Source: a virus (taxonomy: Duplodnaviria > Caudoviricetes). Taken from it: DNA of 64,000 nt. The DNA lies in IMG/VR virus record IMGVR_UViG_3300028832_000114, positions 40,465-104,464 of that record. One strand, given 5' to 3'. Shown piece after piece: positions 1-60,175 of the stretch. Position numbers and translations under genes: made by a program. The first letter of the stretch is position 1, and the number at the start of each line of letters is the position of its first letter. Below the pieces are notes generated by a model. That model ran no database searches. It was not told the origin of the DNA and saw only the letters and a list, made by a program, of their open reading frames with translations.

Positions 1-1
1 T

Positions 2-721: not shown

Positions 722-738
722 GAAAGGAGAGTGCGGCA

Positions 739-1839: not shown

Positions 1840-1843
1840 AAAT

Positions 1844-2053: not shown

Positions 2054-2054
2054 A

Positions 2055-3860: not shown

Positions 3861-3889
3861 TTGATAAATATTTAAAAATATAATATAAT
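3861..3889 (+). promoter_or_regulatory. Sigma70/SigA-type promoter
   Basis: TTGATA-N17-TATAAT upstream of the helicase gene. Confidence 0.75.
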
Positions 3890-3912
3890 ATAAATGAAAG
3901 TGAGGGCAGCAG

Positions 3913-5115: not shown

Positions 5116-5127
5116 GAGGAATAATTA

Positions 5128-5418
5128 ATGAATAATAAGTATACAGTGCAAGGAGTTATGAATGACAGATGAGTTATTTGGTATAAAGATTTAAAGAAAA
5201 AAGGTAATAAAATAGGTGTTTATAAAATAATTGATTTAAATGATGGCAAAAAGACAGCAAGATTTGCAGTAAGATATAAACCAAGAGAGAATCAAACTCA
5301 AGAAGTTTCAGATTCATTAATTATATCTAACTGTATTGCAAATTTTTATAAACATTCTTACACAAATCCAAGAGTAAGATCTAGGGGCGGAAGACGCAGT
5401 TCATTCGTTTCAGGATAG
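5128..5418 (+). CDS. Hypothetical 96-aa basic protein (1 TGA)
   Basis: GGAGGA RBS; open with TGA=W to TAG at 5416-5418. Confidence 0.65.
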
Positions 5419-5426
5419 GCGGCCGC

Positions 5427-5894
5427 ATGAAACTTAGGTTATCTTACTTTTATCAAATAAGAAATTTTAAACCTAATATGATACCAATGTCAACTGCAAT
5501 GTCAGATCCAGCCTGGTATCATGATTTTAAAGACTCAACTCATATCTTCACAGATAAACGAGGAATATTAAATGGACTTAGGTTACTCCCTATTATAGTT
5601 CAAAATGCAAATGGTGAAGTTCACTGTCCATGCGAACATAGAGATGCAACTAGATGTCCACTAGCTCATGATTATGAGGCGGCTCTTGAAAAAGTAGACC
5701 TCCCTAAATTAATGAAAGGCGTAAAATCATTTTGTGATGATTACTGCCAACAAAATAAAATTAAAGAAGAGCCTATTGCAGTATTAATGGTATATGAAGC
5801 ACCTAATAATCCTTGCAGTGAAAGATATAGTTTATTAAAATATTTTAATTCACACGGAATTGAATGTAAAGAACTAGACTACCCTATAGAGTAG
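5427..5894 (+). CDS. Hypothetical protein, DUF488-like
   Basis: N-terminal SYF and C-terminal LMVYE..NNPCSER resemble the DUF488 LxCxE...CHR motif. Confidence 0.45.
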   Translation: MKLRLSYFYQIRNFKPNMIPMSTAMSDPAWYHDFKDSTHIFTDKRGILNGLRLLPIIVQNANGEVHCPCEHRDATRCPLAHDYEAALEKVDLPKLMKGVKSFCDDYCQQNKIKEEPIAVLMVYEAPNNPCSERYSLLKYFNSHGIECKELDYPIE

Positions 5895-5899
5895 TCTAT

Positions 5900-5930
5900 T
5901 TGATTTTTATTTAATTTTTTAGTATAATAT
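5900..5930 (+). promoter_or_regulatory. Possible SigA-type promoter for dnaE
   Basis: TTGATT, then TATATAAT starting 17 nt later. Confidence 0.5.
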
Positions 5931-5960
5931 AAATATATAGGTATGAAAGGAAGGGAAGAT

Positions 5961-9914: not shown

Positions 9915-9922
9915 GAGAATAT

Positions 9923-10276
9923 ATGAAAAAAATAATTGAACATGGTTTTATGAGTTATATGGAAACTACCTGTCCATACTGCGGTTGTAAGTTTTCATTT
10001 GAATGGGAAGATGTAATTAGCCCAACATGAGGTCCTACTTGAAGATATGATAATACAAATATTACAGTTAGTGGTTGTTGTATTACTACAGGAACGGCTC
10101 AAAATTATGAAATTTTCTGCCCTGAATGCAAAAGAAAATTTCCTATTTTAAACTGGTCTTTCTCATATCCTAGAGGTAATTGTCCTTTTACTTATAGTGG
10201 AGAATGGAAAAATACATCTGTAACAAAATGTGACACAGAATGTACGTGTCATAAGTGTTCAGACAAAAATGATTAA
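9923..10276 (+). CDS. Cys-rich zinc-ribbon protein (2 TGA)
   Basis: GGAG RBS; CPYC...CPEC pair plus C-terminal CxxxCxCxxC; open only with TGA=W. Confidence 0.7.
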
Positions 10277-10350
10277 TCATATTAAGCAAAAATTAAAATT
10301 GTCATAGAGGTTAAAATCCTTGAAATAATTTAAATACTAAGGAGGAGACT

Positions 10351-12606
10351 ATGAAAGTCATTAAACGTGATGGTCGCTTGGTTGTTTTTGACCCAGCGAA
10401 AATCGAGAGAGCTATTCTCGCAGCATTCGAGGATGTAGATGGTGAAATATCTGACTACGCTAAAGATAAAGCTGAAAATATAGCAAGTTATATTGAAGGA
10501 TATTATTTAGATGTTGATGAAACACCTAATATTGAAGATATCCAAGACCTAGTAGAAAAAGGTCTAATGGCAACAAAAAGAAAAGATGTTGCAAAAGCCT
10601 ATATTTTATATAGGGAAGAAAGAAATAAAATTAGAAATTCCAATAGCCAATTAATGAAGGCTATTAAGGAAAAGATTGAAGCATCAGATGTTCAAAATCA
10701 AAATGCTAATATTGATGAATATTCTTTCGGCGGCCGTATGGGTGAAGCCCGCAGTGAGTTAATGAAAGATTATGCATTAAATTATTTAGTATCTGATATG
10801 GCAAGAGAAAATCATTTAAATAATGAAATTTATATTCATGATTTAGATGCTTATGCTGTTGGTATGCATAACTGTTTAACCATTCCTTTTGATAAACTAT
10901 TAGCAGAAGGATTTAACACAAGACAAACAGATGTTAGACCAGCTCGTTCAATTAACACAGCATTTCAATTAGTTGCAGTTTTATTTCAATTACAATCACT
11001 TCAACAATTTGGAGGAGTTAGCGCAAGTCATTTAGATTGAACTATGGTTCCATATGTTCGTATGTCATTTAGAAAACATTGGATTAATGGTGTAAAATAT
11101 ATTGAAGATAAAGTTAATGAAATTCCTGTTCAATATTTACCAGAAGAAACATCTATTGAAGATGAAGATTATCAAATGTTTCCAAGAGCATATCAATATG
11201 CAATGGATATGACAACAAAAGAACTTATGCAAGCTGTTCAAGGTATGTATCATAATCTAAATACACTACAATCTAGAAGTGGAAATCAATTACCTTTTAC
11301 TTCTATTAACTATGGTACTTGTACTTTACCTGAAGGTAGAATGGTTACAAAAGCATTATTAGAAGGCTCTATTGAAGGTGTAGGAAAAGTTAGAAAAACT
11401 CCTATATTCCCATGCGGTATATTCCAATGTATGAAAGGTGTTAATCGTAAACCTGGAGACCCTAACTATGATTTATTTAAGTTAGCATTAAAATCAACAG
11501 CTCAAAGATTATATCCTAATTATGTTAATATAGATTGGTCTACTAACGCGGGATATGATATTAACGATCCTAAAACATATGTTTCAACTATGGGTTGTAG
11601 AACTTATAATGGTGCGGATATTAATGCTGAACCTGGCACAAATCCTCAAACTAAGGACGGCCGCGGCAATATATGTCCAGTTACTATTGTAATGCCAACA
11701 TTAGCTATGGAAGCTAAAGAAGAAGCTGAAAGATTTAGAGAGGGAGCAGATGTATATTTTGATAAAATTGAATTATTTATGACGCTATTAGATAAAAAAA
11801 TCCATGAAGCTAGAGATATGTTAGTTGAAAGATATAAATGGATTATTAGTCAAAATCCTGAATCTGCAAAATTTATGTATGAAAATGGATTAATGCTTGG
11901 CTATGATGGTAAGACAGTTGAAAGTGCTATGAAACATGGAACTCTTGTAATAGGTCAAATTGGTATGGCTGAAACATTACAAATTTTAATTGGTTGCGAC
12001 CATACAGAACCTAGAGGAATGGAATTAGCAAAAAGAATTGAACAATTATTTAAAGATAGATGTGCTGAATTTAAAAAAGAATTACACTTAAATATTGGTG
12101 TTTATTATACACCTGCTGAAAATATGTGTTATACATCTATGAAAAAATTTAGAAAAAAATATGGAATTATTCCTAATGTAAGTGATAGAGATTATTTCAC
12201 AAATAGTATTCATGTTCCTGTATGGAAAGAAATGAGTCCATTTGAAAAAATTGATATTGAAAGTCAATTAACTGGATATAGTAATGCAGGATGTATTACT
12301 TATGTAGAATTAGAGGGCGGAGTTAAAAATAATTTAGACGCTCTTGAAACTATTGTTAACTATGCTATGGATAAAGATATTCCATATTTCGCAATAAATG
12401 TTCCAAATGATATATGTTTAGATTGTGGCTATACTGATGAATTCAATGATAAATGTCCAATGTGCGGAAGCACGCATATTCAACAACTTAGACGTGTTAC
12501 TGGATATTTAACAGGAGATTATAAAACAGCATTTAATAAAGGTAAACAACAAGAAACTGAACAAAGATATAAACATAGTAAAAAATTGGAGAACTGGCAT
12601 GATTAG
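10351..12606 (+). CDS. nrdD: Anaerobic (class III) ribonucleotide reductase with ATP cone
   Basis: VIKRDG ATP cone, IYIHDLD, MGCR, TPAE, CxxC...CPMC and RRVTGYL glycyl-radical motif; a single TGA at 11038 gives SHLD-W-TMVPY. Confidence 0.95.
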
Positions 12607-13096
12607 AATTGCTGGGTTAAATGGAAATGATTTTGTCAATGGAGAAGGTGTAAGCGTTAGCTTATTCCTTCAAGGTTGTCATTTTCATTGTAAAGGATGT
12701 CATAATCCTGAAACTTGGAATCCTGAAGGCGGAATTGAAGTTGATGAAGGAGATTTAATTCAACAAATTTTAACATTAATAAATGCTAATAATATTACTC
12801 GTAATCTTAGTATCTTAGGTGGAGAACCACTTGATACCGAACAAAAAAGATATTTTTTAAGAGAATTAATAATACGAGTAAGATATTATTATCCAGAAAT
12901 TAAAATTGTGCTTTGGACAGGATATAAATATAATGATATAAAAGATAAAGAAGATTTTAAATATATATTAGAAAATATAGATTATTTGATTGAAGGCCCT
13001 TTTATATTAGAGGAACGCGACATAACGCTTAAATGGCGCGGCAGCCGCAATCAAAATATAAGAAATATGAAAACAGGAGAAAACATCAATGATTAA
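12599..13096 (+). CDS. nrdG: Anaerobic RNR activase (radical SAM)
   Basis: GCHFHCKGCHNPETW, LGGEP and RGSRNQ motifs; overlaps the nrdD stop. Confidence 0.95.
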   Translation: MIRIAGLNGNDFVNGEGVSVSLFLQGCHFHCKGCHNPETWNPEGGIEVDEGDLIQQILTLINANNITRNLSILGGEPLDTEQKRYFLRELIIRVRYYYPEIKIVLWTGYKYNDIKDKEDFKYILENIDYLIEGPFILEERDITLKWRGSRNQNIRNMKTGENIND

Positions 13097-13250
13097 TTTT
13101 TTAAAAATATTTTTTCCAGCTCTTATGGTAACTGGAGCAGTTGGTAGCTGCGTTGTAAATCTTGTTACAGATAAATCTAATTGGCCTGTAACATTGCAAT
13201 GGTTTGGAGCTGCATTGCTATATACAGCATTATTATTTAGAAACAAATAA
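13089..13250 (+). CDS. Small 53-aa membrane protein (two hydrophobic segments)
   Basis: GGAG RBS; MINFLKIFFPALMVTGAVGSCVVNLV...WFGAALLYTALLFRNK. Confidence 0.6.
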   Translation: MINFLKIFFPALMVTGAVGSCVVNLVTDKSNWPVTLQWFGAALLYTALLFRNK

Positions 13251-13255
13251 AAGGT

Positions 13256-13299
13256 AAGGAGGTAAGTTATAATTTATTAAAATAGCTTACCTCCTTTTT
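13256..13299 (+). terminator. Rho-independent terminator
   Basis: AAGGAGGTAAGTTAT / ATAGCTTACCTCCTT stem followed by a T-run. Confidence 0.75.
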
Positions 13300-13320
13300 C
13301 TTATTTTTCAGGGGGTAATC

Positions 13321-14253
13321 ATGGAAAGAAAAGAAATATGTGATAAGATTTATTACATGACTAAAAAAAGAAAATCTTTTAAAACCGTTTGTCAAGAATT
13401 AAATTTAAAAGATTATGAAGTTATAGGTTTAGTAACTATAATGGCACAAGAGGGATATAATATTGATTTTGTAGATGGAGAGCTTATTATTAGAAAAGTT
13501 CCTAAACAAAATCAAGATGTTTATGAAATTCCATATAATTTAGAACATTTAAAATTATTATTAATTAGTGATACTCATTTATGTTCTAAATATGATAGAT
13601 TAGATATTTTAAAATATTTATATTCAAAAGCAGAAGATAAAGGTATTCAACATATATTACACTCAGGTGATTTTACTGATGGTCGTTCAAATAGACCAGA
13701 ACATGTATATGAATTAAAAGAGCATTCTTATGAAGGACAAGTTGATTATTGTGTTGATAGATATCCTCAATTTAATGGAAAAACATATATAATTTCAGGT
13801 AATCATGATGACTGGTGGTATAAATCTGCAGGAAGTGAAATTGTAAAAACAATAGCTAAACAAAGAGAAGATATGGTTTATTTAGGTCCTGATGTTGCAG
13901 ATTTAAAAATTGGTAAATTAAAAATTAGATTATTTCATGGAATGGGCGGCGGCGCATATGCTAAATCTTATAAATTACAAAAATATTTAGATAGCATTCC
14001 AACCGCAGAAAGACCTGATATTTTACAAACAGGACATACTCATCAATCATTCTATATGAAACAAGATGGTACACATTGTTTTCAAACCAGCTGTTTAGAA
14101 GATCAAACGCCATATTGTAGAAGTATGGGTATGGGAAATGATAAATCATGTTGATGAGTTGATGTAGACTTTGATGATAAGGGAAATATTTATAGTATTA
14201 AACCTGAATTAGAAACATTTGGAGACAAGAAAATTTATACTAAAAGGAAGTAG
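13321..14253 (+). CDS. Calcineurin-like metallophosphoesterase with HTH-like N-terminus
   Basis: ISDTH, HSGDFTDG, SGNHD, FHG and GHTH motifs; tandem TGA-TGA (WW) at 14152-14157, stop TAG at 14253. Confidence 0.85.
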
Positions 14254-14258
14254 TTTTT

Positions 14259-14678
14259 ATGAAAGATGTTACACAATGAATGATAAACAGCTATGGGTTA
14301 GATGATAAGGGCTATGATTTTATGGGTTATACTTTTACAGATCAAAGACAATTAAGCTTTCATCATCTCATCGTTCCTAAAAAAGATTGCCCTAAATTAA
14401 GATTGGGCAATGGATACTTTTTATGAAATGGAGCTATTTTAAAACAACTAACCTCACATAATTATTTACACGTAATAGAAAGAATAGATAGAAATACTTT
14501 TTTAAAAATTACACAAATATTAATAGCAGAAAATCAAACAGGAGAAATAAATATAGAATTATTAAAACAAATTAGATTTTTATTAGAACATTTTGAAAAA
14601 GAGCATTATGATGAAACTGATAAAAAAGGCAAAATTTTAATTAAATCGAAATATATAACAGAAAGGATCCCGCTATAA
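14259..14678 (+). CDS. HNH-like nuclease-fold protein (2 TGA)
   Basis: SFHHLIVPK...G...WNGAIL...SHNYLH pattern; fills the gap exactly up to the next ATG. Confidence 0.55.
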
Positions 14679-14960
14679 ATGACAATAGAAGAAAAAATAC
14701 AAAAACATCAAGAATTATTGAATATCCTACATGAAGTTTATATTGCAAAAAATCATGATTATGGGGATAGTGTTCATGATACTTATAATAAATATGGAAT
14801 AGTTTCTTTTTTGGTAAGACTTGAAGATAAATTAAATAGAGCTAGAACAATTAGTTCTAAATCTCAAATGGTAGAAGATGAAAAATTGAAAGACACTTTA
14901 TTAGATATGGCAAACTATGCTATTTTAGCAATTTTAGAGTTGGAGGATAATAATGGATAA
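14679..14960 (+). CDS. DUF1599 / nucleotide-modification-associated domain 1 protein
   Basis: KNHDYGDS...VRLEDKLNR...[12 protein letters not shown] signature. Confidence 0.8.
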
Positions 14961-16182
14961 AAAAATAAAAGAAGCATTAGAAAAAGAAATTATAAGACAA
15001 CAACAAAATATTGAATTAATTGCGAGTGAAAATTATGTATCTAATGATATATTAAAATTACAAGGAAGTATATTTACAAATAAATATGCAGAAGGATATC
15101 CCTCTAAAAGATATTATGGGGGATGTGAAAATGTTGATACTGTTGAACAATTAGCTATTGATTATGTATGTAAATTATTTAATGTAAAATATGCAAATGT
15201 TCAACCTCATAGTGGTAGCAGTGCTAATATGGCGGTATATAGAGCATTATTACAACCTGGTGATACTGTATTAGGCATGAATTTAAGTTCCGGTGGACAT
15301 TTAACACACGGATATAAATTAAATTTTAGTGGAAAAGATTATAATATTATTAGTTATGATGTTGATTATAATGGATATATTAATTATGATAATATTGAAG
15401 AATTAGCACTACAATATAAACCTAAAATGATTATAGCAGGCGCTTCCGCATATCCAAGAAAAATAGATTTTGCAAGATTTAAAGATATTGCAGATAAATG
15501 TGGTGCATATTTAATGGTTGATATGGCACACATAGCTGGATTAGTTGCGGCAGGTTTTCATCAAAATCCTTGTGATTATGCAGATGTAGTAACTTCCACT
15601 ACACATAAAACACTACGTGGACCTCGTGGAGGAATTATATTAACAAATAATAGTGAAATTAGTAAAATAATTAATAAAACAATATTCCCAGGTATTCAAG
15701 GTGGACCTTTAGAGCATGTAATCGCCGCAAAAGCTCAGTGTTTTTATGAGGCACTACAATCCGATTTTAAAGAATATCAAAAACAAGTATTAAAAAATAT
15801 TACAGCAATGGCTGAAGAGTTTCGTTCACTTGGGGTTTCTTTAGTAAGTGATGGCACTGATAATCATTTAATTTTAGTTGATGTATTTCACTCTTTTGGT
15901 TTAACAGGGGCGGAAGCAGAAATAATTTTAGATAAAATTCATATTACAGTTAATAAAAACACTATTCCAGGAGAAACATTAAAAGCAACTGAGGCAAGTG
16001 GTATTAGAATTGGTAGTCCTGCTATGACAACTAAAGGACTTAAAGAAGAAGATTTTAAAACAATAGCAGATATTATTTATATGGCTTTATCTTTAAGAAC
16101 TGATAAAAATGCATTAGAAAGACAAAAAGAAAGGGTATTAGAAATTACAAATAAAATTTATTATGAGCAAACTAATTTTTAG
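14953..16182 (+). CDS. glyA: Serine hydroxymethyltransferase
   Basis: [34 protein letters not shown] and FPGIQGGP motifs. Confidence 0.97.
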
Positions 16183-16738
16183 ATATAGTGCTATGAATAG
16201 TGGCAAAACAACCAATTTGTTACAAGTAGCACATAATTATGAAGAACGCGGGTTTATGGTTAAAATAGCTAAACCTGAAATAGATACAAAGGCGGATGAC
16301 CGTGTTTCTAGCCGCATTGGACTAGAACGAAAGGTAGACTACCTAATACCGCCGCAAGGAGAAATATCAATAGATCTAAGAACTAATGTGCTATTGATTG
16401 ACGAAGCACAATTTCTAAATAAAGAACAAATAGATCAATTATATGAAATATCAAAATTATATAATATTTTAATTATTTGCTATGGTTTAAGAACGGATTT
16501 CCGCATGCAAGGATTTCCTGGGGCTACTCGTCTACTAGAAATAGCTGATGAAATTGAAGAATTAAAAACTATTTGCTCTTGTGGCAAAAAGGCTACATTT
16601 AATCTTCGTCTAATTAATGGTTTTCCAACATTTGAAGGAGACCAAGTGTCTATTGATAATCAAGAAGAAATAAAATATGATAGTATATGCGGGGATTGTT
16701 ATTTAAAATTAAAACAAGGAGCTAAAAATGGATTATAA
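16163..16738 (+). CDS. tdk: Thymidine kinase
   Basis: [22 protein letters not shown] and CxC...C Zn sites. Confidence 0.95.
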
Positions 16739-17351
16739 AATTGAAACTAAAATTACTGATTTTGATATTAATTGAAAAAAAATAAAATCAGCATGTATGA
16801 CTACTATATCAAAAGAAGCTGGAGATAAAGAACCATCAAGTGAATGAAAAAGAAAATTATTATTATGTGAGCATAGTCCTATTCGTCGCGGTACTGTAAG
16901 TTGGAAGTGAGATGCTATTCCCTATGCAATTTCAACTCATTTTGTAAGACATCATGAAGGTGTAGAAAAATGGGTAGGCACTCAAAGAGCTGATAGAACA
17001 GAAGTAAAAGATAGAAGTGAAAGAAGCCAAATGAATCCAGTCCCTATGGAGATGGAAGCTAATATTCAAGCATTAATTAATATATCATATAAAAGACTTT
17101 GTACTTGTGCAGATCCACTTACTAGAAAATATTGGGAAAATACTTTATTAGCAATTAAGGAATATGATGAAGATATATTCTGGGCTTGTGTTCCTCAATG
17201 TATTAGATGTGGAGGATGCCCTGAATATAAAACTTGTGGATATTATGAACAATTTGCAAAAAATCTAACAATGGAAGAACAAATAGATATTCATAAAAGA
17301 TATGATAAATATAATGAAGAAAGAGCTAAAAGACTAACTTTGAAAAAATAA
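16728..17351 (+). CDS. thyX: Flavin-dependent thymidylate synthase (ThyX-like; 3 TGA)
   Basis: With TGA=W gives EHSPIR, STHFVRH..TQRADR, RLCTCA and VPQCIRCGGCPE; extends ORF 17031-17351 by 101 aa. Confidence 0.8.
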
Positions 17352-17368
17352 AAAAAATATATTATAAT
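17340..17368 (+). promoter_or_regulatory. SigA-type promoter
   Basis: TTGAAA-N17-TATAAT upstream of def. Confidence 0.75.
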
Positions 17369-17402
17369 ATTTATATATAAAATAAGAAAAGAGGTAAAAA
17401 AT

Positions 17403-17888
17403 ATGATAAGACCAATTTTAACATATCCTGCGGATAAAGAAATATTAACACAAAAAAGTGTTGAAGTAACAGAATTTAATGATGAAATAAAAGAAATTAT
17501 AACCGATTTAATTGATACATTAAAAAATTCAACTGGTGCAGGCATTTCCGCAATTCAAATTGGAAAACCTTATCGTATTTGTGTTATAAATTGGTGTGAT
17601 ATTCATGTTTTAGTTAACCCAAAAATAACTAGAACAAGAGGAACTCATTCAATGAGGGAAGGCTGTTTATCAGTTCCTGGATTATTTGTTGATCATGAAC
17701 GAGCTCAAAAAGTATGGATCACTGCACTAAACGAAAATGGTGAAGAATATGAATATGCTGAGGGCGGCAATGGTAGCTATATTGCTCAACATGAATTAGA
17801 CCATTTTGAAGGTACTTGTTCATTATTCCAAGCATATGATGAAATAGAAAAAAATATAGGGGTTGAAAAGAAAAATGAAAATAATTAA
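17403..17888 (+). CDS. def: Peptide deformylase
   Basis: GAGISAIQIG, EGCLS and QHELDHFEG motifs. Confidence 0.95.
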   Translation: MIRPILTYPADKEILTQKSVEVTEFNDEIKEIITDLIDTLKNSTGAGISAIQIGKPYRICVINWCDIHVLVNPKITRTRGTHSMREGCLSVPGLFVDHERAQKVWITALNENGEEYEYAEGGNGSYIAQHELDHFEGTCSLFQAYDEIEKNIGVEKKNENN

Positions 17889-18378
17889 AAGATTTTTATT
17901 AAATAGAAAATTAAAAAAAGAATATAAAAGAAAAATATTAGAACATAAAACAAAATTAATTCAAATTTTTAGAGAATTATTACAATGAAAAGATTGTGAT
18001 TGGATAACTAAAGACTTGGATGTAATGAATAATTTATGGTATAGAATATTAGAACATGATGATAGTCTATATGATAAAATAGAAATGAAAATATTTAAAA
18101 ATCCTGATGGGAATTATTCTCAAGAAGAATATGACGCCGCAGTTCAACATCACATAAATAATAACGACCATCATTGGGAGAATAGAGTAGATGACCAAAT
18201 TTTAACCTTACAAACTAAGCTAGCCTGTGTTGAAAATCTACTAGATTGAATGTCTTATAAAACAGCTCCTTATGAAGAATGATTTACATTCATTGAAAAT
18301 ACAAAACTACCAGAAATACAAAAAAACTTCATGAAAGAATTTATGTGAGTAATAATAAATAATAAAATGGAGGTATAA
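17875..18378 (+). CDS. HD-like phosphohydrolase, DUF5662-like (4 TGA)
   Basis: HK...HDDS...HHINNNDHHWE...ENLLDW pattern. Confidence 0.55.
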
Positions 18379-18380
18379 TT

Positions 18381-18557
18381 ATGTTATGGTTTTGGATATT
18401 AGTTGGAATAGTAGTAGTATTAACAATAATATTTGTAATCTGCGCTATTATAACTGGTAAAAGTATGGAAGCATATTACACAGGACTAGATGACGAAGAG
18501 AGGTATTTAAATGATATTCCAGAAAAACAAGAAGAAAAAATTAAAGAAGAAGAATAG
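18381..18557 (+). CDS. Small single-pass membrane protein
   Basis: GGAGG RBS; hydrophobic N-terminus MLWFWILVGIVVVLTIIFVICAII, acidic tail. Confidence 0.6.
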   Translation: MLWFWILVGIVVVLTIIFVICAIITGKSMEAYYTGLDDEERYLNDIPEKQEEKIKEEE

Positions 18558-18963
18558 CACTGTTGAAATGGGAACTTCTCTTTACGAAGTAAATAAAGGG
18601 CTTGTAGAAAAAAATGTTCCTGATTTAACAGATGAAGAAATGCAAAATAAAAAAACATTAATAATTGATTTTATAAATAATACAAGTAATCAATATTATA
18701 TGTTATTATGCAATGATAAAAAAGATTATACAATATTTAGAAGAGAAACGAATGAAAATAAAGATTTCTTAGACAATCTTGAAACTCCAGACCGCGATAG
18801 ATTATGGAATGTATTAATTGATGAATGTCTTCCTAACCGCGGCCGCACAAAATCAATAGAATTAACTGAAAATCAAGATGCTGTTGAGATATGGATCTCA
18901 ATTGAGAGCGAAAGTTATTGCTATATGTTTTTTCCATATGATGCAGCTATCATTGAATGTTAG
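18511..18963 (+). CDS. Hypothetical protein
   Basis: 150-aa ORF, GAGG RBS, ends TAG. Confidence 0.7.
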   Translation: MIFQKNKKKKLKKKNSTVEMGTSLYEVNKGLVEKNVPDLTDEEMQNKKTLIIDFINNTSNQYYMLLCNDKKDYTIFRRETNENKDFLDNLETPDRDRLWNVLIDECLPNRGRTKSIELTENQDAVEIWISIESESYCYMFFPYDAAIIEC

Positions 18964-18972
18964 GAGGATAAA

Positions 18973-19239
18973 ATGACAATTATTGCAAATGTAAAAGGTT
19001 TTACTTTAGCACATCCAGTTATGGTTGTTGATAATGATAAAGTCGTTTATGCAACAAAAGCATCTTTAAAAGATATGCCTGAATTACTTTCTCATTTTGC
19101 TCAAACTTATAATTGTAATCATATTACTTTTGTAGGTAATCAAAAATTTGCTGAGAAAATGGCAAATCAAACTAAAGATATTTTTAAAGCTAAATATAGT
19201 AAAGAAACTGAATTAGAAATTGAATACATTACTAAATAA
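18973..19239 (+). CDS. Hypothetical protein
   Basis: GGAGG RBS, 88 aa. Confidence 0.7.
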   Translation: MTIIANVKGFTLAHPVMVVDNDKVVYATKASLKDMPELLSHFAQTYNCNHITFVGNQKFAEKMANQTKDIFKAKYSKETELEIEYITK

Positions 19240-19255
19240 TAGTAATGTTTTTTTG

Positions 19256-19284
19256 TTGAAAAAAATAAAAAAATAGAGTATAAT
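19256..19284 (+). promoter_or_regulatory. SigA-type promoter
   Basis: TTGAAA-N17-TATAAT. Confidence 0.75.
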
Positions 19285-19316
19285 AAAGTATAAAGGAAAG
19301 AAAAGGAGATAAAATT

Positions 19317-19568
19317 ATGAAATATTTATTAGAAACAACTGAATCTTATAGAGTTAGTACTGAAGAAGAAGTAACTCAATTAATAGAAAATGCAAAAAAA
19401 GATAATCATTATATATTAAAAAAACACACTTCACAAATTAAAGAGCGTAAACAAAAAGGTGAGGTTGTTGATATGTGGTATAAAGTAACCTTAACAAAAT
19501 ATTTTACAAGTGAAAAAGAACCTGAAGGAACAACAGAAATTGTTTATAATGAGGGGAGCGCATTTTAA
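19317..19568 (+). CDS. Hypothetical protein
   Basis: AGGAG RBS, 83 aa. Confidence 0.7.
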   Translation: MKYLLETTESYRVSTEEEVTQLIENAKKDNHYILKKHTSQIKERKQKGEVVDMWYKVTLTKYFTSEKEPEGTTEIVYNEGSAF

Positions 19569-19570
19569 TT

Positions 19571-20005
19571 ATGGAAATAAAATATAAAAAATTAGATTCA
19601 AATGCAAAAGAACCAACTCAAGGGAGTCCATATGCAGCAGGATATGATTTATATGCAGCAACAGATAAAGCAACAGGAATTAGACCGCATACAACAGTAA
19701 AGATTGGAACTGGTATTGCTATTGAGTTACCTGAAAATACCTTTGGTGCTATTTTTGCTAGAAGCGGACTTGCTACAAAACAAGGATTGCGTCCTGCAAA
19801 TTGTGTAGGAGTAGTTGATTCGGATTATAGAGGAGAAGTTATTGTAGCATTACACAATGATACAGATAATATACAAGTTATTTCATCTGGTGATCGTATA
19901 GCTCAATTGGTAGTTATGCCTTATATACCTGTTAGATTTATTGAAACAGAAGAATTAACAGATACTGTCCGTGGTGATGGTGGATTTGGTTCTACAGGAG
20001 TTTAA
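19571..20005 (+). CDS. dut: Trimeric dUTPase
   Basis: AAGYDL, ARSGLA, GVVDSDYRGE, RIAQL and RGDGGFGSTG motifs. Confidence 0.97.
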   Translation: MEIKYKKLDSNAKEPTQGSPYAAGYDLYAATDKATGIRPHTTVKIGTGIAIELPENTFGAIFARSGLATKQGLRPANCVGVVDSDYRGEVIVALHNDTDNIQVISSGDRIAQLVVMPYIPVRFIETEELTDTVRGDGGFGSTGV

Positions 20006-32554: not shown

Positions 32555-33049
32555 TTATTCTCTATTTTCGTTCTTTAAACAAATTCCACTTTTTTTAGGT
32601 AAAGCGCGGATTTCTTCCATAAGCTCATCAATAAAACTATTGCCGCCTTCATCTTTATAATGACTATATCTTTTTTCAATACAATCTAAACTATAATCAT
32701 CTATATATCCAACTTGATAGCAAAAATAATGATGTTTTTCAGTTATCCAAGCTTTAATATCATCTCTATCTGACGCTTCTAATAAACTTACAGATTTTTG
32801 AATATCTGCTATTGTATTTTTAATTTGTATTTGACAACCTTCAATTTCATTCTTCATACTTTTTTGTTCTTGAGTTAAATCATCAATACTTTTTTTCATA
32901 GCCTCTTGTTCATTAAGTTTACCAGCATGTTTATTAATTTTATCTTTAGCTCAGTCAATTCATGTAATTACACCTTTTACTGCAGCACTTAATAAAACGA
33001 TAAACATAACGATTTCATCAACAGAGTATGTATTTAGCAAATCTTTCAT
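32555..33049 (-). CDS. Holin-like membrane protein (N-terminal TM, coiled coil, YxxYxxxGGN)
   Basis: Joins ORFs at 32960 and 32555 through two TGA (ITWIDWAK); KRYSHYKDEGGNSF. Confidence 0.6.
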
Positions 33050-33137: not shown

Positions 33138-33171
33138 AAAAAAGAAAGCAGAGTATCCAACTCTACTTTCT
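33138..33171 (-). terminator. Rho-independent terminator
   Basis: AGAAAGTAGAGT-TGGAT-ACTCTGCTTTCT plus T-run. Confidence 0.75.
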
Positions 33172-33606
33172 AGGTATTTTCATAAAATAACAATAAACTT
33201 TTTCATCAATAGCATCTGGATCTATAATAAAATCTTTACTAAATTTAGCATACCATTCTATATTTTCTTCAAATAAATCATGATAATCATTATATGCAGA
33301 ATTCATTACAATCCAAAAATCAACAGGTCTAATATCTGAATAACCATAATTACCTCTAACTCCTTCGGTATCGGTTAAAGTTCATTTCATTCCATAAGGT
33401 TTCATATCTTCAATTATTTCTTTAGCCATATCTTCATTTAATACTTTACCTTCTGCTATTTCATATAGTTTTTGTTCTACTTTTTCTAACTCTCTATCGC
33501 CAACCATATCAATGATATACTCCATATATTCAGACATTTCTTCAATTTTATCTGTATCACCAGAGCTTAAGATTTTTGTTATATATTTTTTATAATCCAT
33601 TTCCAA
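33163..33606 (-). CDS. Conserved hypothetical protein (1 TGA)
   Basis: Read-through gives GMKWTLTDT...DFWIVMNSAYNDY...FIIDPDA; stop TAG at 33163. Confidence 0.7.
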
Positions 33607-33790
33607 TTTTTTCCACCTTTCTTAATATTTCATTTAACAATCTATTTTGATATTCTAATTTATGTTCCATATCAAAAATAATTGTATCAAGTTTTCTACT
33701 TTGAGATTCGTTTTCTTCATAAGAATGAAGAGAAATATAAGATAAAAGCACAGTTAATAAATCTAGTGCATCAAGATTACGATCATTCAT
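33590..33790 (-). CDS. Small hypothetical protein
   Basis: 66-aa ORF coupled to its neighbours by overlapping start/stop. Confidence 0.65.
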   Translation of the reverse strand: MNDRNLDALDLLTVLLSYISLHSYEENESQSRKLDTIIFDMEHKLEYQNRLLNEILRKVEKIGNGL

Positions 33791-34143
33791 TAAATACTCC
33801 CAACTGTAATTGTTTCACTTTTTGGATTTACACAAGAAGTGATAACAAATTGTCCATCTTCATAATTATCATTCCCATTACCATACATAATAGGATATCT
33901 TACTCTAGTATTTAATTGATTTGCATATATTGTATTTCCTGCTTTACATAAAACAGGTATATTTCCTATCTCAGTTTGAATAAATACAGGTAAGTTGGCA
34001 GTTGCGGCAGCATTATTACAAATAATTAAACCATAAGTTTCTGTATTTACTAAATTTTTAACTGTTCTATTTGGGATTAAAATAACCTCTTCATCGGTAG
34101 TTTCAACAGTTGAACAATACATTGTTTGACAGCTATAATTCAT
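33790..34143 (-). CDS. Hypothetical beta-rich protein
   Basis: GGAG RBS before MNYSCQ. Confidence 0.7.
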   Translation of the reverse strand: MNYSCQTMYCSTVETTDEEVILIPNRTVKNLVNTETYGLIICNNAAATANLPVFIQTEIGNIPVLCKAGNTIYANQLNTRVRYPIMYGNGNDNYEDGQFVITSCVNPKSETITVGSI

Positions 34144-34162
34144 TTCAATCTCCTTTCTAAAT

Positions 34163-34191
34163 AAAAAATGCGGAAGCACCTAGCCTCCGCA
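34163..34191 (-). terminator. Internal terminator
   Basis: TGCGGAGGC-TAGGT-GCTTCCGCA-TTTTTT. Confidence 0.7.
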
Positions 34192-34223
34192 CGTCAACTT
34201 GCAAAAGCAAGGATTAAGTTAAA

Positions 34224-34793
34224 CTAATATAAAGAATTGCATCCACAACCAGTGTAGCAAGGTGGATTTAAAACATATCTACCTTGTAAATTTAAAATTG
34301 TGTCTGTTGAATTTTGTACAGCTGCAGTTAAAGCGGCAGTTTGATTTGCATTAGATAATGCATCTCTAGTAGTTTGAAGTTTATCACTTAATTCTCTGAT
34401 ATAATTATCTTGAATCATTTGTCTTGTAGCATTATTTTCAGTAGTAACTAAATTACCAATTGCGGCAATACTATTACTAATTTGTTGTTGAATATCTTTC
34501 ATAGAAACTAAATTATTATAGTTACTAGTTAAAACAGTATCAGTTAATGCACATTGACCATTAGCTAAACCTCTAATAGCAGCGTCTTGTGATTGGAAAT
34601 ATAAGCTATTTTGAAGGTCGCTTTGTCCTAAAGCTGTAGCTCCATTATTCCAGAATCCACCATTTCCGCCAAATAATAAAATGAAAATAATGATTAATGA
34701 GAAAATACCCATTGAACCACCAAATAATCCATCATTACCGTCTCTTGTTAATGCTAATACATCAGCAGCTGACATTCCAGTATTATCGTTCAT
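34224..34793 (-). CDS. Membrane-anchored Gly-rich/coiled-coil protein with Cys-rich tip
   Basis: TM segment IFSLIIIFILLFGGNGGFW, helical QQQISNSI...IRELSDKLQ, C-terminal PCYTGCGC. Confidence 0.75.
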   Translation of the reverse strand: MNDNTGMSAADVLALTRDGNDGLFGGSMGIFSLIIIFILLFGGNGGFWNNGATALGQSDLQNSLYFQSQDAAIRGLANGQCALTDTVLTSNYNNLVSMKDIQQQISNSIAAIGNLVTTENNATRQMIQDNYIRELSDKLQTTRDALSNANQTAALTAAVQNSTDTILNLQGRYVLNPPCYTGCGCNSLY

Positions 34794-34850
34794 TCTCTTT
34801 CCTCCCTTTCCTAAAAATATATTTTTTATAATAAAAAGCTAGTCACGTGC

Positions 34851-35075
34851 CTATCTTTTATTACCATTAATTAAATTAATCATTTGCATAAATTGTTCTT
34901 TTGTAATCCCTTTTTCATTACACATTTTTGCAATACTTTCCGCCTGTTTTTCAGTGGGTTGACTACTTAGCGTATTAAAAAGTTGTAACTGTTGTGGATT
35001 TAGTAGACTTGTTAGGGCTTGTTGTGGTTGACTTGACATCAACATTTGTGACAACAGGTTCTGTATGTTTATCAT
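34851..35075 (-). CDS. Small Gln/Met-rich hypothetical protein
   Basis: GGAGGAG RBS; AKMCNEKGIT motif. Confidence 0.7.
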   Translation of the reverse strand: MINIQNLLSQMLMSSQPQQALTSLLNPQQLQLFNTLSSQPTEKQAESIAKMCNEKGITKEQFMQMINLINGNKR

Positions 35076-35433
35076 TCAATCTCTCCTCCAATTCTTTTAA
35101 TTTATTTTCTAATTCATCAATTTTTATATCTTTTGCATCTTTAGGAATTATAATTTCATAATTCTTAGAAATTGTTCCATCTAATTCTTTAACACATATT
35201 CTATGATTTGTTTCGTCGATAAATAATGTTTTTTTAGTTATAATAACATTCTTTATATCCTCTTCTGGTTTTAAATATCTTACTTCAGTATCAGAGGAAT
35301 TAGATGTATTAATAATATTTTGAATTGGAGTGGTTTGATTAGCCATACCTTGATATTGATTTATCATATTTTCAATATTTTCTTTTTGTCTATAAAGTTG
35401 TGTCATCATACCACCATAATTATTATAAGGCAT
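34975..35433 (-). CDS. Hypothetical protein, first gene of the six-gene module
   Basis: GGAAGGGA RBS, 152 aa. Confidence 0.7.
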   Translation of the reverse strand: MPYNNYGGMMTQLYRQKENIENMINQYQGMANQTTPIQNIINTSNSSDTEVRYLKPEEDIKNVIITKKTLFIDETNHRICVKELDGTISKNYEIIIPKDAKDIKIDELENKLKELEERLNDKHTEPVVTNVDVKSTTTSPNKSTKSTTVTTF

Positions 35434-35460
35434 TCTATCCCTTCCTTTCTTTAATACAAC

Positions 35461-35508
35461 AAAAAAAGCCGCGCAATAGGAAACGAATTATCTCCTATTA
35501 CGCGGCTT
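35461..35508 (-). terminator. Leader terminator/attenuator hairpin upstream of the module
   Basis: AAGCCGCGTAATAGGAGAT-AATTC-GTTTCCTATTGCGCGGCTT plus U-run; G-U pairs form only on the - strand. Confidence 0.75.
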
Positions 35509-35532
35509 AAAATGTCGTAATAATAATTTCAT
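35488..35532 (-). CDS. Putative leader peptide MKLLLRHFKPRNRR (or MDWMKLLLRHFKPRNRR from 35541)
   Basis: AAAGGA upstream; the ORF runs through the 5' arm of the terminator and stops at the stem/loop junction. Confidence 0.45.
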   Translation of the reverse strand: MKLLLRHFKPRNRR

Positions 35533-35595
35533 TCAATCCATTTCCTTTTTATAATTCTAGTAAAGATGGCATACAATAACATTGTATCTTCATCC

Positions 35596-35645
35596 TTACA
35601 TATATATTTAATTTTTATCTCAAATCAATTATACTCTTTGTCCCA
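35596..35645 (-). promoter_or_regulatory. Putative late-type promoter variant
   Basis: TGGGACAAAG...TTAAATATATATG resembles the other three copies with slightly shifted spacing. Confidence 0.4.
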
Positions 35646-35660
35646 AAAATTTTTTCAATC

Positions 35661-36608
35661 TTATCTTCAACGACCTATTGCTAACCAACAAAATCTTAAT
35701 GGCGAACCATATAATGCTGTTTGCCCTGCATCTGCAGGAGGTAAATAAGAATACCTTCTATAAAAACAACAATTTGTATTGTTGTTAGGTGTTGGAATAA
35801 TATTTGTCGCTAAAATATTTGCCTGGCCAACTGAAGATGCACTAATATATGCTGGATTAGAAATAACTGTAACATAAGAATTAGTACAAAAAGGTTCAGG
35901 ATATGTAACTGTTAAATAGCTATCAGGAACAGCCTGCCCACCACTAGAGAACGTTGCTATTCCTCCCTCAAGCATTAAACCGCCATCAAATTTTATCCAG
36001 TAAGTATAATTAGATCCTCCATCTACTACTTTTAATCCACTGGTATATCCTAATGCTTTTCCAGGTTTATAAGTAGTCGCCTCTCTAACTTCAAATTGTA
36101 CATTATAATTATTTTTAAATCATTCTCAAGTCTTATCTGAGTCAAGAACATAAAATTCAATAGCAATGTATTTCATTGTACCTGTTGCACCAGTTGGTTT
36201 TAAATTAATTTTAGATTGACTAATAGCAAGGGTGCTTGATGTTTGAGATGCTTTTAAATAAGCACTTGTTCTTGCCATTGCTTGTCCATTTTCATTAAAT
36301 CCAACAATATAATATGAACAAACTCCTATTGGTAACCCAGAAAAATAATAAGTTCCATTAACTGTTCAATCAACTGGAATTAAATTTGAACATAACGCAG
36401 ATGAAGAAGGAGAACCTACTAAAGTATCTGAATTATATCCCCAATAATATCAACCTGTAATTAAATTTTTAGTATGAATTTCATCTATATATATGGGAGC
36501 TGTAATTGGTCTTCTTCCAATTAAATAACTTTTTAACATGTAATGTCCATGTGCAATTCCATCACTATCTAAAAACATTGAATCATTAAATTTAAAAGCT
36601 TTTGACAT
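35661..36608 (-). CDS. Tail fibre/receptor-binding-type protein, 315 aa
   Basis: GGAGG RBS; continuous with TGA=W; C-terminal YWIKFDGGLMLEGG...YPEPF...FCWLAIGRW resembles gp53-like fibre tips. Confidence 0.6.
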
Positions 36609-51395: not shown

Positions 51396-51434
51396 AAAAA
51401 AAATAGGTAGTTATTATTTTAACTACCTATTTTC
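51396..51434 (-). terminator. Terminator overlapping the tape measure stop
   Basis: AAATAGGTAGTTA / TAACTACCTATTT plus T-run. Confidence 0.75.
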
Positions 51435-54400
51435 CATTACCCTTTGTGCAGCAACATTAACTAAATTATTTAACGCCTCTTCAATTTCTCTTGCATTACG
51501 AACATTAGGGAATGATGCGTCAATGTGAACATCTTGTTCTAATAATCCATTGCCGCCACTAATATTTGTATAACCAGAAGCACTTGCATTTGCTAATTTA
51601 GATAATACTGTACTACCAAGTGAATATGTTAATCCTCTCATTACTGAAATAGCATTTAACATATTTTTAGTATCTGATTGATTTAAAACAAGTTCTTTTT
51701 GATGTAGAGTTGCTAAACGACCTTGACCACTTCAATTGCCAGTATAACCACCAGTATCATATCCAGAAATATCTTTAATTTTAATCCATCCAACTCATGA
51801 ACTACTCTTACTAAAATCAGGACTTGTTCCAACATGAACTCAACCCTTACTCTTATAATTTGTATTTTGGATATATAATTTTGAACCTTTTTTATAATAT
51901 GGATTTTTTATGTAACCGCTTCCAACAGATGTTGCATAACTAGAATTAATTGTAACTTTATCTCCAACATCAACTTGTCCATTGCCTTGAGGTTCTACTT
52001 TTGTAGGTTCTTGTTTTTCTTCAAGAGTTTCATTATTATTTTCATTATTGCCTTGATTACCTTGTTGACCATTTTTTTCTTCATCTTCAATTTCATCTAT
52101 TTGTTTATTCTTTTCTTTATGTTCATATTCATAAGCTGCGGTTGCCGCATTTTTTGCAGCCTCTTCTGCATCTTTATATTGTTTTGTTAATTTAACAACT
52201 TCATCATAAACCTTTTTAACATATTTTAATTCTTTTTTATAACAGTCAATTAAATCTTTATTATCTTTTACTAAAGTTTCTGTTTTAGTAATATCTTCAT
52301 CAAGACCATTTTTAATTTCTTCAAATGTTTTGCCAGATGATTTTTCTAAAGCCGCTATATCAGATGAATATGTTTTTTGAGCTTTAGTAATTTTTTGTCA
52401 ACTTTTTTTAGTAACAGTAGCAAAACCACTTTCTCCATTGAACGTATCGTTCATATTGTTTGTATTATCAACAATATTTTGTGCAGCTTCTTGAAAACTT
52501 TGAGACATTTCATTAGTTTTACTTTTTACAGAATTAGATGTTTTAGTAAAGGCTAAATCAATTGCCGCAATTCCACCTTCTCCATCTTCTCCTGTTAAGA
52601 AGTAATCAAGCATATCTGAAACACCAGTTTTTCAAGTTGGCACCATTTCACGTAAAATTAAATCTTTTTCAGTATTGGTTAAATTTGCAAAAGCCTCTTC
52701 AGACAAATCATTTAAATTTTTTCAATCCTCAAAAGCAGATTCTTGTAAATTATATTTTGAATCTAAATAATCTTGTTCAATTTGAACCATTAACTCATTA
52801 TATTGTTCTTGGATTAATTTTTCTTTTTCTGCACGTTTTTCTGGATCTGTAATCATTGCAGCTTCTGCCATTTTTTGCTGATATTCACTATAAATGCTGT
52901 AAGCATCATTTAATACTTGATTATATCTTTCTTTATCAAAATTATATAATGAATTAGTTAATTGATCAACTTGATCTTGCGCTTTTTGAATTTCATCTTG
53001 ATTAGCAGTATACTGATAAGTATAATTACCTTGGCTATCTCTTCTTAATCTCATTTGAGATTTATTTTGACGAGCATCTTCAAGGGCTAATCTAGCAACT
53101 TCAAGTTCATATAATTTATTTGCTCTATCTAAATCATATTGAGTTAATCTATCTTTCTCTTCTAACGTTGCTAATTGCTCATCCATAATTTTTTTCAATT
53201 TTTGTTGAGCTTTAGTATTATCAGATTTATTAATAGCATCTGTATATTTTTTCTCTAATTCTCGAATGCCATAAGTTGCATTGATTGTATCAAGATATCT
53301 GTCTGCATTTTTATTAATTAGTTCTCATTGTTCATTTACAAAATCCAATCCTTTTCCACCCGTTACTTCATTATTTAAAGCTTTAAAAATTCCATTAATA
53401 GCATTTTGAAATTTATCAACTGCATTTTGCAAACTTTCTTCTAATGTTTTGTTAAGATCTTGGGCTGCAGTTTTTCAATTTTCAGTAACAGCTTCAAGTC
53501 TCTCTTCTGCATCTAAATACTCATCTTGAACTTCTTTTCATTCTGTACTATTTTCTTCTAATGTACTTAATTCTTTTTGTAAATTATCAACTCTTGTTTG
53601 TTCTGCGCTCATTTGTTCTGCTCAGAATTGTTTTTCTTGTCTTTGAAAATCTAATGTATCATTATAATTTTCTTGCTGTCTTGTATAAAATTGGTCTAAC
53701 TCTTCATATGAGTCTTCTCCATAAACTAATTGAATAATTTTTTTATCATGTTCTATTAAATCATTTAATAAATTATAATTATCAATTTGTTTATCAAAAG
53801 CTTCTTGAGATGCAGCTATTTGATCTAATACCGCTTGATGTAAATCTCTTTCAACTTGTTCAGCATCTTCAATAGATTGCATTAAAGCAGTATATTTATC
53901 TTTAAGTTCATCTAATGCTTTAGCTCGATCATTAACAGTAGTACCATCTGCCGCCTTAGCGCTATAAACGGAACTAAGACCACCTTCATCCATAATTTTT
54001 AATTCTCTAAGAATTGATTGTACTTGTGATGTTTGAGCTTGAATATCTCCACGACCATTTGCCGCATAATATGTTTGAAGATCTGCTTTTCTAGCTTTAG
54101 CATTACCTAAAATATCGCTTTCTCTAATACCTTGAATATTTTTCTTTTTTCATGCATTTCAATCTCTTGTTGCTTGATTCATATCAAGAGTAATTTCTAA
54201 TTTTAAATTAAATTTTTGAATTTGAATTTCTATTTGTTTTTCTAATGCATCTAATCTACTTTGTTCTAATTCTGGAATTAAACTAACTGTAACTTCATCA
54301 TATCTATCAATATCAGATTTAAATTTTTCATATTTTTCTTTTGCTTTACTTAAAATTTCATCATCGTCTCATTTTTCTTGCTGAGCTTTAGTTAAACCAT

Positions 54401-60065: not shown

Positions 60066-60175
60066 ATCCTTCTTCCTCCTTTTATTTCATAAAAATTATT
60101 CCAAAATAAAAATTCCCTCTTATCTATTTATGATAAAAAGGAATAATCTATTAATCTAATCTACCCATTGTATTT

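Follow-up and report, generated by a model that had tools for sequence, protein, structure and literature searches.

In the leader-peptide attenuators of trp, his and pyrBI, mutually exclusive structures of the leader RNA decide whether transcription terminates. RNA-controlled variants of such leaders have been described in plasmids and in a satellite phage. In the countertranscript-driven attenuation of pT181, pIP501 and pAMbeta1, the nascent leader folds either as a preemptor (antiterminator) or as an intrinsic terminator (summarized in PMC2879508), and in the immunity of the satellite phage P4 the CI RNA pairs with seqA and seqC, which leads to premature termination (described in PMC4825925, refs 45-47). 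Terminators placed before genes are also overcome in other ways: (i) in the late control of lambdoid phages, with its PR'-QBE-tR' arrangement and Q (PMC9388147, PMC6606751, PMC7547250), (ii) by AlpA (PMC9371919), or (iii) as in Tn916, where an insulator terminator is overcome by the cis-acting canT RNA encoded by the element (PMC11658703).

Here we describe a leader that precedes a gene cassette of a TGA-recoding phage and propose that it is a terminator/antiterminator switch controlled by a small RNA (sRNA). The basis of this proposal is computational throughout, and we put its probability at roughly 0.58.

The phage, its genetic code and the cassette

The window (the whole stretch of DNA that was analyzed, 64,000 nt) belongs to a phage record of 104 kb in IMG/VR, which has 29% G+C and is approx. 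70% complete. In the following, G000 is the genome of this phage, WIN is the window's own leader, the other G-numbers are related genomes, and the L-numbers are loci. The recoding of TGA to tryptophan was confirmed, as the open frames lose their interruptions only if TGA is translated as Trp, and a tRNA with a UCA anticodon is encoded in the phage tRNA array. This array (G000:C1, approx. 11.4-22.0 kb, outside the window) contains 24 tRNA genes and a tmRNA-like gene, all on one strand. The UCA-anticodon tRNA (UGA suppressor) adjoins tRNA-Trp(CCA), and a CUA-anticodon tRNA is also present, yet the tape-measure gene (the single frame counted) is without in-frame TAG.

Close relatives (85-87% identity in a 189-aa protein) differ in code use. 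The standard-code relatives L004, L012 and L013 have 0 in-frame TGA versus 32-37 TGG (32 TGG in L004), while in the recoded ones compared (WIN, L001 and L006-L011) TGA represents up to 21 of the 24 Trp codons of the homologous large gene. It looks as if the recoding was gained or lost recently inside one clade. The relatives derive from rumen-type metagenomes; one is found on a contig of an Erysipelotrichaceae MAG, and a neighboring gene of one relative contains repeats, identified by eye, which we take to be CW_7-like. Together, these two observations point to a host of Gram-positive type.

Replication genes (PolC-like polymerase, NrdD, RecJ) are located on the + strand, and the - strand carries the gene of a 2880-aa tape-measure protein and, beyond it, tail and fibre genes down to position 35661. 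An RpoD/SigA-like sigma factor (284 aa, regions 2-4) is also phage-encoded, outside the window (G000:C1:2528-3382, - strand; L209:1450-2304). The leader lies in a gap of 227 nt that separates the last fibre-like gene from a series of small family-less genes. The features of this region are as follows.

35661 to 36608, - strand: upstream tail-fibre-like gene, 315 aa, 5 in-frame TGA, weak phrog_1396 match; varies among loci
35653 to 35658, - strand: -35-like hexamer TTGAAA (P1), from the sequence and the comparison of leaders
35637 to 35647, - strand: near-invariant 11-bp box TTTGGGACAAA in the promoter spacer, from the comparison of leaders
35628 to 35633, - strand: -10 hexamer TATAAT (P1), from the sequence and the comparison of leaders
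35599 to 35611, - strand: second -10-like hexamer TTAAAT and conserved ATATATG, from the comparison of leaders
35560 to 35599, - strand: 5' hairpin H1, predicted by folding; variable in sequence and missing in short-type leaders
35488 to 35541, - strand: uORF, 17 codons by code 4, or 14 codons from a second ATG at 35532; unconserved
35466 to 35508, - strand: intrinsic terminator stem-loop, 19 pairs of which 8 are G-C, with a T-run (7 T) at 35467-35461
34975 to 35448, - strand: gene 1, 152 aa, no family; SD at 35448-35437, ATG at 35433
33143 to 35075, - strand: rest of the cassette, genes 2-6 and two terminators
34851 to 35075, - strand: gene 2
34224 to 34793, - strand: gene 3, transmembrane segment plus coiled coil
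34192 to 34168, - strand: internal terminator before gene 4
33790 to 34143, - strand: gene 4
between gene 4 and gene 6, - strand: gene 5
33163 to 33606, - strand: gene 6, DUF7841
33171 to 33143, - strand: end terminator

Searches of PHROGs, Pfam, NCBIfam and the ESM Atlas for a function of the cassette yielded only the DUF7841 assignment of gene 6, the remaining matches being weak and unconvincing. TGA is avoided by the first four cassette genes. Right after the cassette (32555-33049, - strand) there is a gene for a 164-aa membrane protein, which has a weak match, below the cut-off (E = 2.6e-7), to the Mycoplasma 'MAG0865 DivIVA-related' family. A homologue of this protein is encoded upstream of the leader in L012 and L013, and the gene order around the cassette is therefore permuted.

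Additional strong terminator-like hairpins are placed directly upstream of ribosome-binding sites in the window, all on the - strand: before cassette gene 4 (34168-34192), after gene 6 (33143-33171), before the 2880-aa tape-measure gene (60112-60144) and in the gap between the tape-measure gene and a 1725-aa gene (51398-51435). Terminators right before genes may be a general trait of this phage. Four putative late-promoter sites have only a loose TTTGGnC...TATATA pattern in common.

The promoter region and the leader terminator

An earlier note on this DNA had described an attenuator leader composed of a promoter-like motif, a 5' hairpin, a uORF (ATG-GAT-TGA-ATG) extending over the 5' arm of a terminator, and the 19-bp U-tailed terminator itself, about 30 nt before the first gene. 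All four elements are present on the - strand: the promoter has the form TTGAAA-19 nt-TATAAT, the hairpin spans 35599-35560, the uORF ends in the terminator loop, and the terminator ends 32 nt before gene 1. What stands of the attenuator is a leader that has a promoter of its own and, immediately before a conserved cassette, a terminator that looks regulated; the idea of a peptide as the sensor is not retained, for reasons given in the next section.

The 19-nt spacing of the -35 and -10 hexamers in the window is suboptimal, versus 17 nt in the 97%-identical L002. A -35-like hexamer (at least 4 of 6 positions) at a spacing of 16-19 nt was found in 20 of 27 leaders, against a background of 22%. 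The box TTTGGGACAAA is placed within a spacer of 17±1 nt, between the -35-like hexamer and a -10 of TATAAT or GATAAT; together with the adjoining -10 it occurs as a single copy in the genome, and it is a candidate protein-binding site. The second -10-like hexamer, 14-21 nt past the -10, is also conserved and may represent a further promoter (P2, with a start near 35600) or, alternatively, a conserved element of the initially transcribed region. Transcription would accordingly begin either approx. 7 nt after TATAAT or at approx. 35600, right at the 5' hairpin, and the latter start would match the geometry of the sRNA gene described below (-10, 7 nt, hairpin beginning UGUA). Hairpin H1 is likely a 5' stabiliser. 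The folding energy of the intergenic RNA is -60.8 kcal/mol (z = -7.4; none of 200 shuffled sequences folded as well).

A family of strong promoters recurs in these phages, composed of TTGACA, an A/T-palindromic spacer (AAAATTTTT) and TATAAT (L240, L243, L239, L237 and the sRNA promoters), and its palindromic spacers suggest a shared DNA-binding regulator or bent DNA.

The layout of the promoter region resembles the PR'-QBE-pause-tR' arrangement, with a sigma-70-type promoter, a near-invariant 11-bp box, a -10-like element approx. 16-21 bp past the -10 and a strong terminator approx. 100-250 bp downstream, before the genes. Protein-dependent processive antitermination of the lambdoid Q/AlpA type, in which a factor bound at the spacer box would load onto a polymerase paused at the second -10-like element and render it resistant to the leader terminator, and RNA pairings would be secondary, could account for this arrangement and would be compatible with a coexisting RNA switch. 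However, searches for PF06530 (Q), PF02357 (NusG) and TIGR01637 (ArpU) found no homologue in the 70%-complete genome, the box may equally be a repressor operator, and such a mechanism leaves unexplained both the covariation within the leader and the co-varying sRNA seed that are presented below. We consider it unlikely.

Homologous leaders were collected with the conserved 189-aa cassette gene as a query, which gave 16, later 19, viral loci, 1 MAG contig and 50 metagenome loci; 28 distinct leaders were drawn from those viral and metagenome contigs. A strong terminator (-18 to -30 kcal/mol) is kept in these 28 leaders, while the leader is absent from distant relatives (47-66% identity). In the alignment of the terminator, 92.8% of the cells are paired and 13 of the 17 pairs show compensatory changes. 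The element is thus a G+C-rich stem-loop with a U-run, kept by compensatory change, as is typical of an intrinsic (Rho-independent) terminator. It is the strongest terminator-like site in the scanned parts of the window (1-20000 and 26001-64000; three regions), and the hairpins and the terminator are conserved and far above chance. The terminator loop was also considered as a mimic of a UCA anticodon loop, and this candidate was dropped, since the window's own loop reads UUCG.

The hairpin might be an ordinary terminator that ends the fibre operon and/or a stand-alone non-coding leader RNA, with the cassette being transcribed by constitutive leakage. A terminated leader would indeed be sRNA-shaped, and at most loci the upstream gene is without a terminator of its own, for which reason the hairpin probably also stops upstream transcripts. 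However, the upstream gene changes from locus to locus (fibre variants, small genes, a holin-like gene) while leader and terminator stay with the cassette, and in L006 a separate, extra terminator is found upstream of the promoter block. These observations assign the leader to the cassette rather than to the fibre gene, contrary to the alternative, raised in the earlier note, that the hairpin serves only to end the variable upstream gene. In addition, the terminator ends (where measured) 23-37 nt before the ATG of gene 1, which leaves no room for another promoter. As a conserved antiterminator pairing and a co-varying sRNA would also remain unexplained, we regard an ordinary terminator as an improbable interpretation.

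The uORF and the proposed antiterminator motif

According to the earlier note, ribosomes translating the uORF would block the terminator, and read-through of its UGA would report the use of code 4. The geometry in the window fits this interpretation: the sequence reads AAAAGGAA-ATG(35541)-GAT-TGA(35535-35533)-ATG(35532), with the TAA (35490-35488) inside the terminator loop, and the phage is TGA-recoded and carries the UCA-anticodon tRNA. We tabulated the open reading frames beginning in this motif in 15 homologous leaders. ATG-GAT-TGA is present in 11 of them, but past 'MDW' the leader peptide is unconserved, as its sequence, length and stop site all vary. Some frames end before the stem, by at most 39 nt (39, 24 and 14 nt in L011, L148 and L001, respectively), others as late as past the terminator, and indels that shift the frame separate even the close pairs WIN/L002 and L011/L158. 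No regulatory codons and no stop consistently placed relative to the alternative structures were detected among the 15 leaders.

An in-frame TGA is missing in 4 of the 15 leaders. In the standard-code relative L004, the motif is identical, including ATG-GAT-TGA, and is followed by the same terminator; the motif is identical in L005 as well, and both L004/L005 and L012/L013 keep the leader. A second ATG of the WIN type, which the earlier note had favored on account of spacing, is found elsewhere in L002 alone. The first ATG, in turn, follows the SD-like GGA/GGG at a distance of just 2 nt. In Firmicutes of the Bacillus type, transcription and translation are weakly coupled, which we also counted against a leader peptide.

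Being unconserved, the uORF appears to be no more than a chance reading frame. The conservation of ATG-GAT-TGA is attributable to two RNA-RNA pairings that account for the letters of the motif (with the terminator apex and with the sRNA seed). The UGA-sensing leader peptide, attractive but in our judgment wrong, was thus removed by the comparison of code-11 with code-4 phages, and we consider it extremely unlikely. As the motif is SD-like, occupancy by a ribosome or a 30S subunit may possibly act as a modulator.

The elements involved in the first of these pairings are the following.

35532 to 35545, - strand: motif M, GGAAATGGATTGAA, the antiterminator strand and predicted sRNA target, which includes ATG-GAT-TGA
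35477 to 35490, - strand: apex of the terminator, made up of the loop and the upper 3' arm; complement of motif M
35495 to 35523, - strand: inner antiterminator hairpin, in which the spacer (35523-35516) pairs with the mid 5' arm (35502-35495)

The 14-nt motif GGAAAUGGAUUGAA is the best partner of the apex within the leader in 27 of the 28 distinct leaders, and the resulting helix comprises 12-14 bp (-10 to -15 kcal/mol). The apex is conserved while the lower terminator stems vary. In the alignment of motif and apex, 93.1% of the cells are paired, versus 39-67% in slid controls, and the mean energy is -13.3 kcal/mol for own pairs versus -11.4 kcal/mol for cross pairs (permutation p<1e-4, an optimistic value, as the genomes are related). 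Several changes occur on both sides of the helix: (i) an extra A opposite an extra U in L011, L158 and L189, (ii) a 2-nt insertion in L182, (iii) a 1-nt deletion in L206, and (iv) a rewritten pair in L012, L013 and L194. Both the terminator and the structure that excludes it are therefore conserved, and both show covariation in the computed alignments.

An exact-motif scan of IMG/VR gave at least 119 chance matches, and among the loci screened from the matches listed, the leader architecture was found only in this clade.

When prefixes of the leader were folded, the motif:apex pairing was the minimum free energy (MFE) structure in each of the 15 leaders examined at lengths that expose 3-11 nt of the 3' arm, and the terminator prevailed only after 9-15 nt of this arm. 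Since the pairing is the favored fold until that point, motif M behaves in these folds as an antiterminator, and as part of its pairing is with the loop, nucleation does not have to await the 3' arm. In the model, the motif:apex helix and the inner hairpin form a nested antiterminator; equivalents of the inner pairing were found in L002, L004, L007 and L153 when the motif:apex helix was enforced. Once complete, the terminator is favored over the antiterminator fold by 5-18 kcal/mol, so the decision between termination and antitermination would be kinetic, as judged from MFE folds of prefixes only. In leaders with a long spacer, a pseudoknot that keeps the lower terminator stem is possible.

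The short-type leaders L006, L008, L171 and L178 are without the 5' hairpin and have a strong cis anti-motif over the -10/+1 region (-13 to -16 kcal/mol), which gives three competing strands (upstream anti-motif, motif, terminator). This anti-motif is significant in these four leaders only and not in the long type to which the window belongs. As it would be present only in transcripts that enter from upstream, the terminator of the short type may insulate against upstream transcription and spare transcripts from its own promoter. Another variant, L009:3101-3365, is a leader with three copies of a GGAUUGA-type motif, and the ribosome-binding site of its gene 1 (GGAAGGGGAUUGAA) is itself complementary to this seed in 13 of 14 nucleotides of the sRNA.

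A terminator/antiterminator pair is also the platform of riboswitches, and a small-molecule riboswitch (e.g. a relative of the trpB motif) was considered, as was a switch set by a protein that binds the RNA at the motif. The Rfam scan of the window gave nothing at gathering thresholds, and permissive scans of the leader gave weak matches driven by its architecture only; one such match to RF04312 (trpB motif) extends across the leader (29.1 bits), and a second weak match was found in L009 (28.4 bits). The former is approx. 30 bits under the gathering threshold (59 bits), with the conserved motif in an alignment insert, and RF04312 matched 2 of 9 leaders and none of the other 7. Moreover, what is conserved amounts to an ordinary Watson-Crick helix of 12-14 bp, without pocket-like conserved unpaired nucleotides, and the short-type leaders have nearly no room for an aptamer. 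A switch of this kind is very improbable.

A candidate small-RNA gene and its predicted pairing with the leader

The sRNA gene was first spotted as a near-copy of motif M on the opposite strand (G000:C1:11181-11194), which is the complement of the seed.

G000:C1:11153 to 11234 (L018:1473 to 1554), outside the window, - strand: candidate sRNA gene of approx. 80 nt, with promoter, hairpin, seed and terminator

In G000, this gene consists of a promoter (TTGATA-17-TATAAT), a 5' hairpin, the unpaired seed UUCAAUCCCUUUCC and an intrinsic terminator, and it follows closely on tRNA-Met, where the tRNA array ends. It was identified in six related genomes including G000, in five of the six just downstream of same-strand tRNA genes, at a distance of 58-65 kb from the leader. 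G000, G001, G003, G004 and G005 share a promoter of the form TTGnnn-17-TATAAT, a 5' hairpin and an invariant seed that is unpaired, along with a terminator whose sequence varies. The seed is the same while the hairpin sequences differ in G001, G004 and G005; in G003 the seed is shifted, and G002 has a longer form. Four candidates were folded, with z-scores of -6 to -8 and the seed unpaired.

The sRNA had no family match in Rfam, where a permissive scan gave weak, architecture-driven matches only, and an architecture-aware scan of IMG/VR detected the gene in this clade only. A seed search revealed no sRNA in G006 and G007 (70-74% complete) and G009-G013, on contigs that are 17-74% complete, and none was found in G008, which is without the leader. 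Second-copy matches in L213 and L215 lack the anatomy of the sRNA gene and were judged to be chance. A search for further sRNA genes by the promoter-spacer pattern yielded only ordinary phage promoters of the same family.

The seed is complementary to motif M at 13 of 14 positions, with a conserved U-C mismatch in the duplex, and motif M is the only contiguous 13/14 complement of the seed in the genome. By duplex energy, the motif ranks 6th among the sites of G000, or 5th when the antisense strand of the sRNA gene itself is left out. The seed also pairs with the 3' UUGAA of the motif, which is mostly unpaired in the motif:apex helix, and this would explain why these nucleotides are invariant. 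Co-folding with the nascent leader replaced motif:apex by seed:motif pairing in 4 of 5 genomes, so that the terminator can nucleate; with full leaders, the gain was -12.6 to -17.6 kcal/mol and the terminator was complete or nearly so.

The flanks of the seed co-vary with those of the motif lineage by lineage, which is a covariation between two distant loci. The native seed-motif assignment was the best of 120 permutations, and the best of 720 with G002 included, for samples of 5-6 genomes whose relatedness makes the corresponding p-values optimistic. The altered, short-type motif of G002 pairs with its own altered seed at -23.2 kcal/mol, versus -11.3 to -14.8 kcal/mol with foreign seeds.

The core of the seed is anti-SD-like and is also complementary to a number of ribosome-binding sites, one of them in front of cassette gene 3. 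Those with a GGAAAGGGAG-type sequence pair with the seed core at -20 to -22 kcal/mol (window 34786, - strand, gene 3; G000:C1:2390, - strand; G000:C1:7059, - strand). These matches suggest that the sRNA may have further targets and may repress the translation of several phage genes.

From these structures and pairings we infer the following order of events, including the production of both RNAs and the start, timing and direction of the regulation. A sigma-A-type promoter with an invariant spacer box would start a leader RNA of approx. 135-160 nt (35461-35660 region). As the terminator emerges, motif M would pair first with its loop and then with its upper 3' arm; this would pre-empt the terminator hairpin, and RNA polymerase would read through into gene 1. 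The sRNA (approx. 80 nt), transcribed from the end of the tRNA array, would bind M via its seed, the apex would be released, the full terminator would form, and transcription would stop 32 nt before gene 1. The cassette would thus be off while the sRNA is in excess.

It is conceivable, although distinctly speculative and on balance doubtful, that the leader reads the state of the tRNA/suppressor array in trans, i.e. that the sRNA, if co-expressed with the array and titrated by leader transcripts, acts as a threshold timer tying a cassette that avoids TGA in its first four genes to the code switch, via RNA and without any decoding of UGA.

Comparison with known regulatory systems

The sRNA-controlled switch proposed here shares with pT181, pIP501 and pAMbeta1, and with RnaG/icsA, the principle that a small RNA bound to the leader lets the terminator form and turns the downstream genes off. 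As in pT181 and pIP501, the regulatory RNA is complementary to the antiterminator (preemptor) strand, which in our case is indicated by the 13/14 match, the co-folding and the two-locus covariation. In contrast, regulators of the pT181 type are cis-encoded, overlapping and fully complementary, whereas the candidate sRNA is encoded 58-65 kb away and would pair through a seed of 14-19 nt. Furthermore, the antiterminator strand targets the loop and 3' arm of the terminator, and not the 5' arm as in the pT181 type, and the controlled unit is a phage gene cassette instead of a replication gene.

The resemblance to P4 CI consists in a phage-encoded small RNA, short complementary sites on the nascent leader, and termination before the downstream genes. 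However, CI arises by processing of the leader transcript under its control and serves prophage immunity, while the candidate sRNA has a distinct gene beside the tRNA array, under a promoter of its own. The two RNAs are unrelated in sequence.

Like lambdoid PR' and AlpA-controlled regions, the locus combines a promoter that contains a conserved element, a leader RNA that is short and terminated, and a strong terminator before the genes, which is a resemblance of layout only. No member of the Q, NusG and ArpU families searched for was found in the 70%-complete genome, and the evidence favors RNA-RNA competition over modification of the polymerase; membership in the Q type is unsupported. The leader also falls outside the trpB motif family and the leader-peptide attenuators, as it has, unlike trp, his and pyrBI, no conserved translated leader frame and no regulatory codons. 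With Tn916 it shares a terminator at the edge of a mobile module that blocks incoming transcription and is overcome by an RNA feature of the element, but canT is processive and acts on several terminators, including heterologous ones, whereas the antiterminator described here is specific to one terminator by base pairing.

RNA-controlled attenuation has so far been described mainly for the cis-antisense RNAs of Gram-positive plasmids and for P4 immunity. In the large, uncultivated rumen phages analyzed here, a trans-encoded, seed-type sRNA apparently controls an intrinsic terminator. If confirmed, this would (i) place a separately controlled cassette beside the tail-fibre genes and a holin-like gene in TGA-recoding phages, (ii) provide one of the rare examples of phage RNAs that co-vary between two loci, and (iii) add to the known systems a regulatory design in which a loop-first antiterminator is combined with an sRNA acting in trans.
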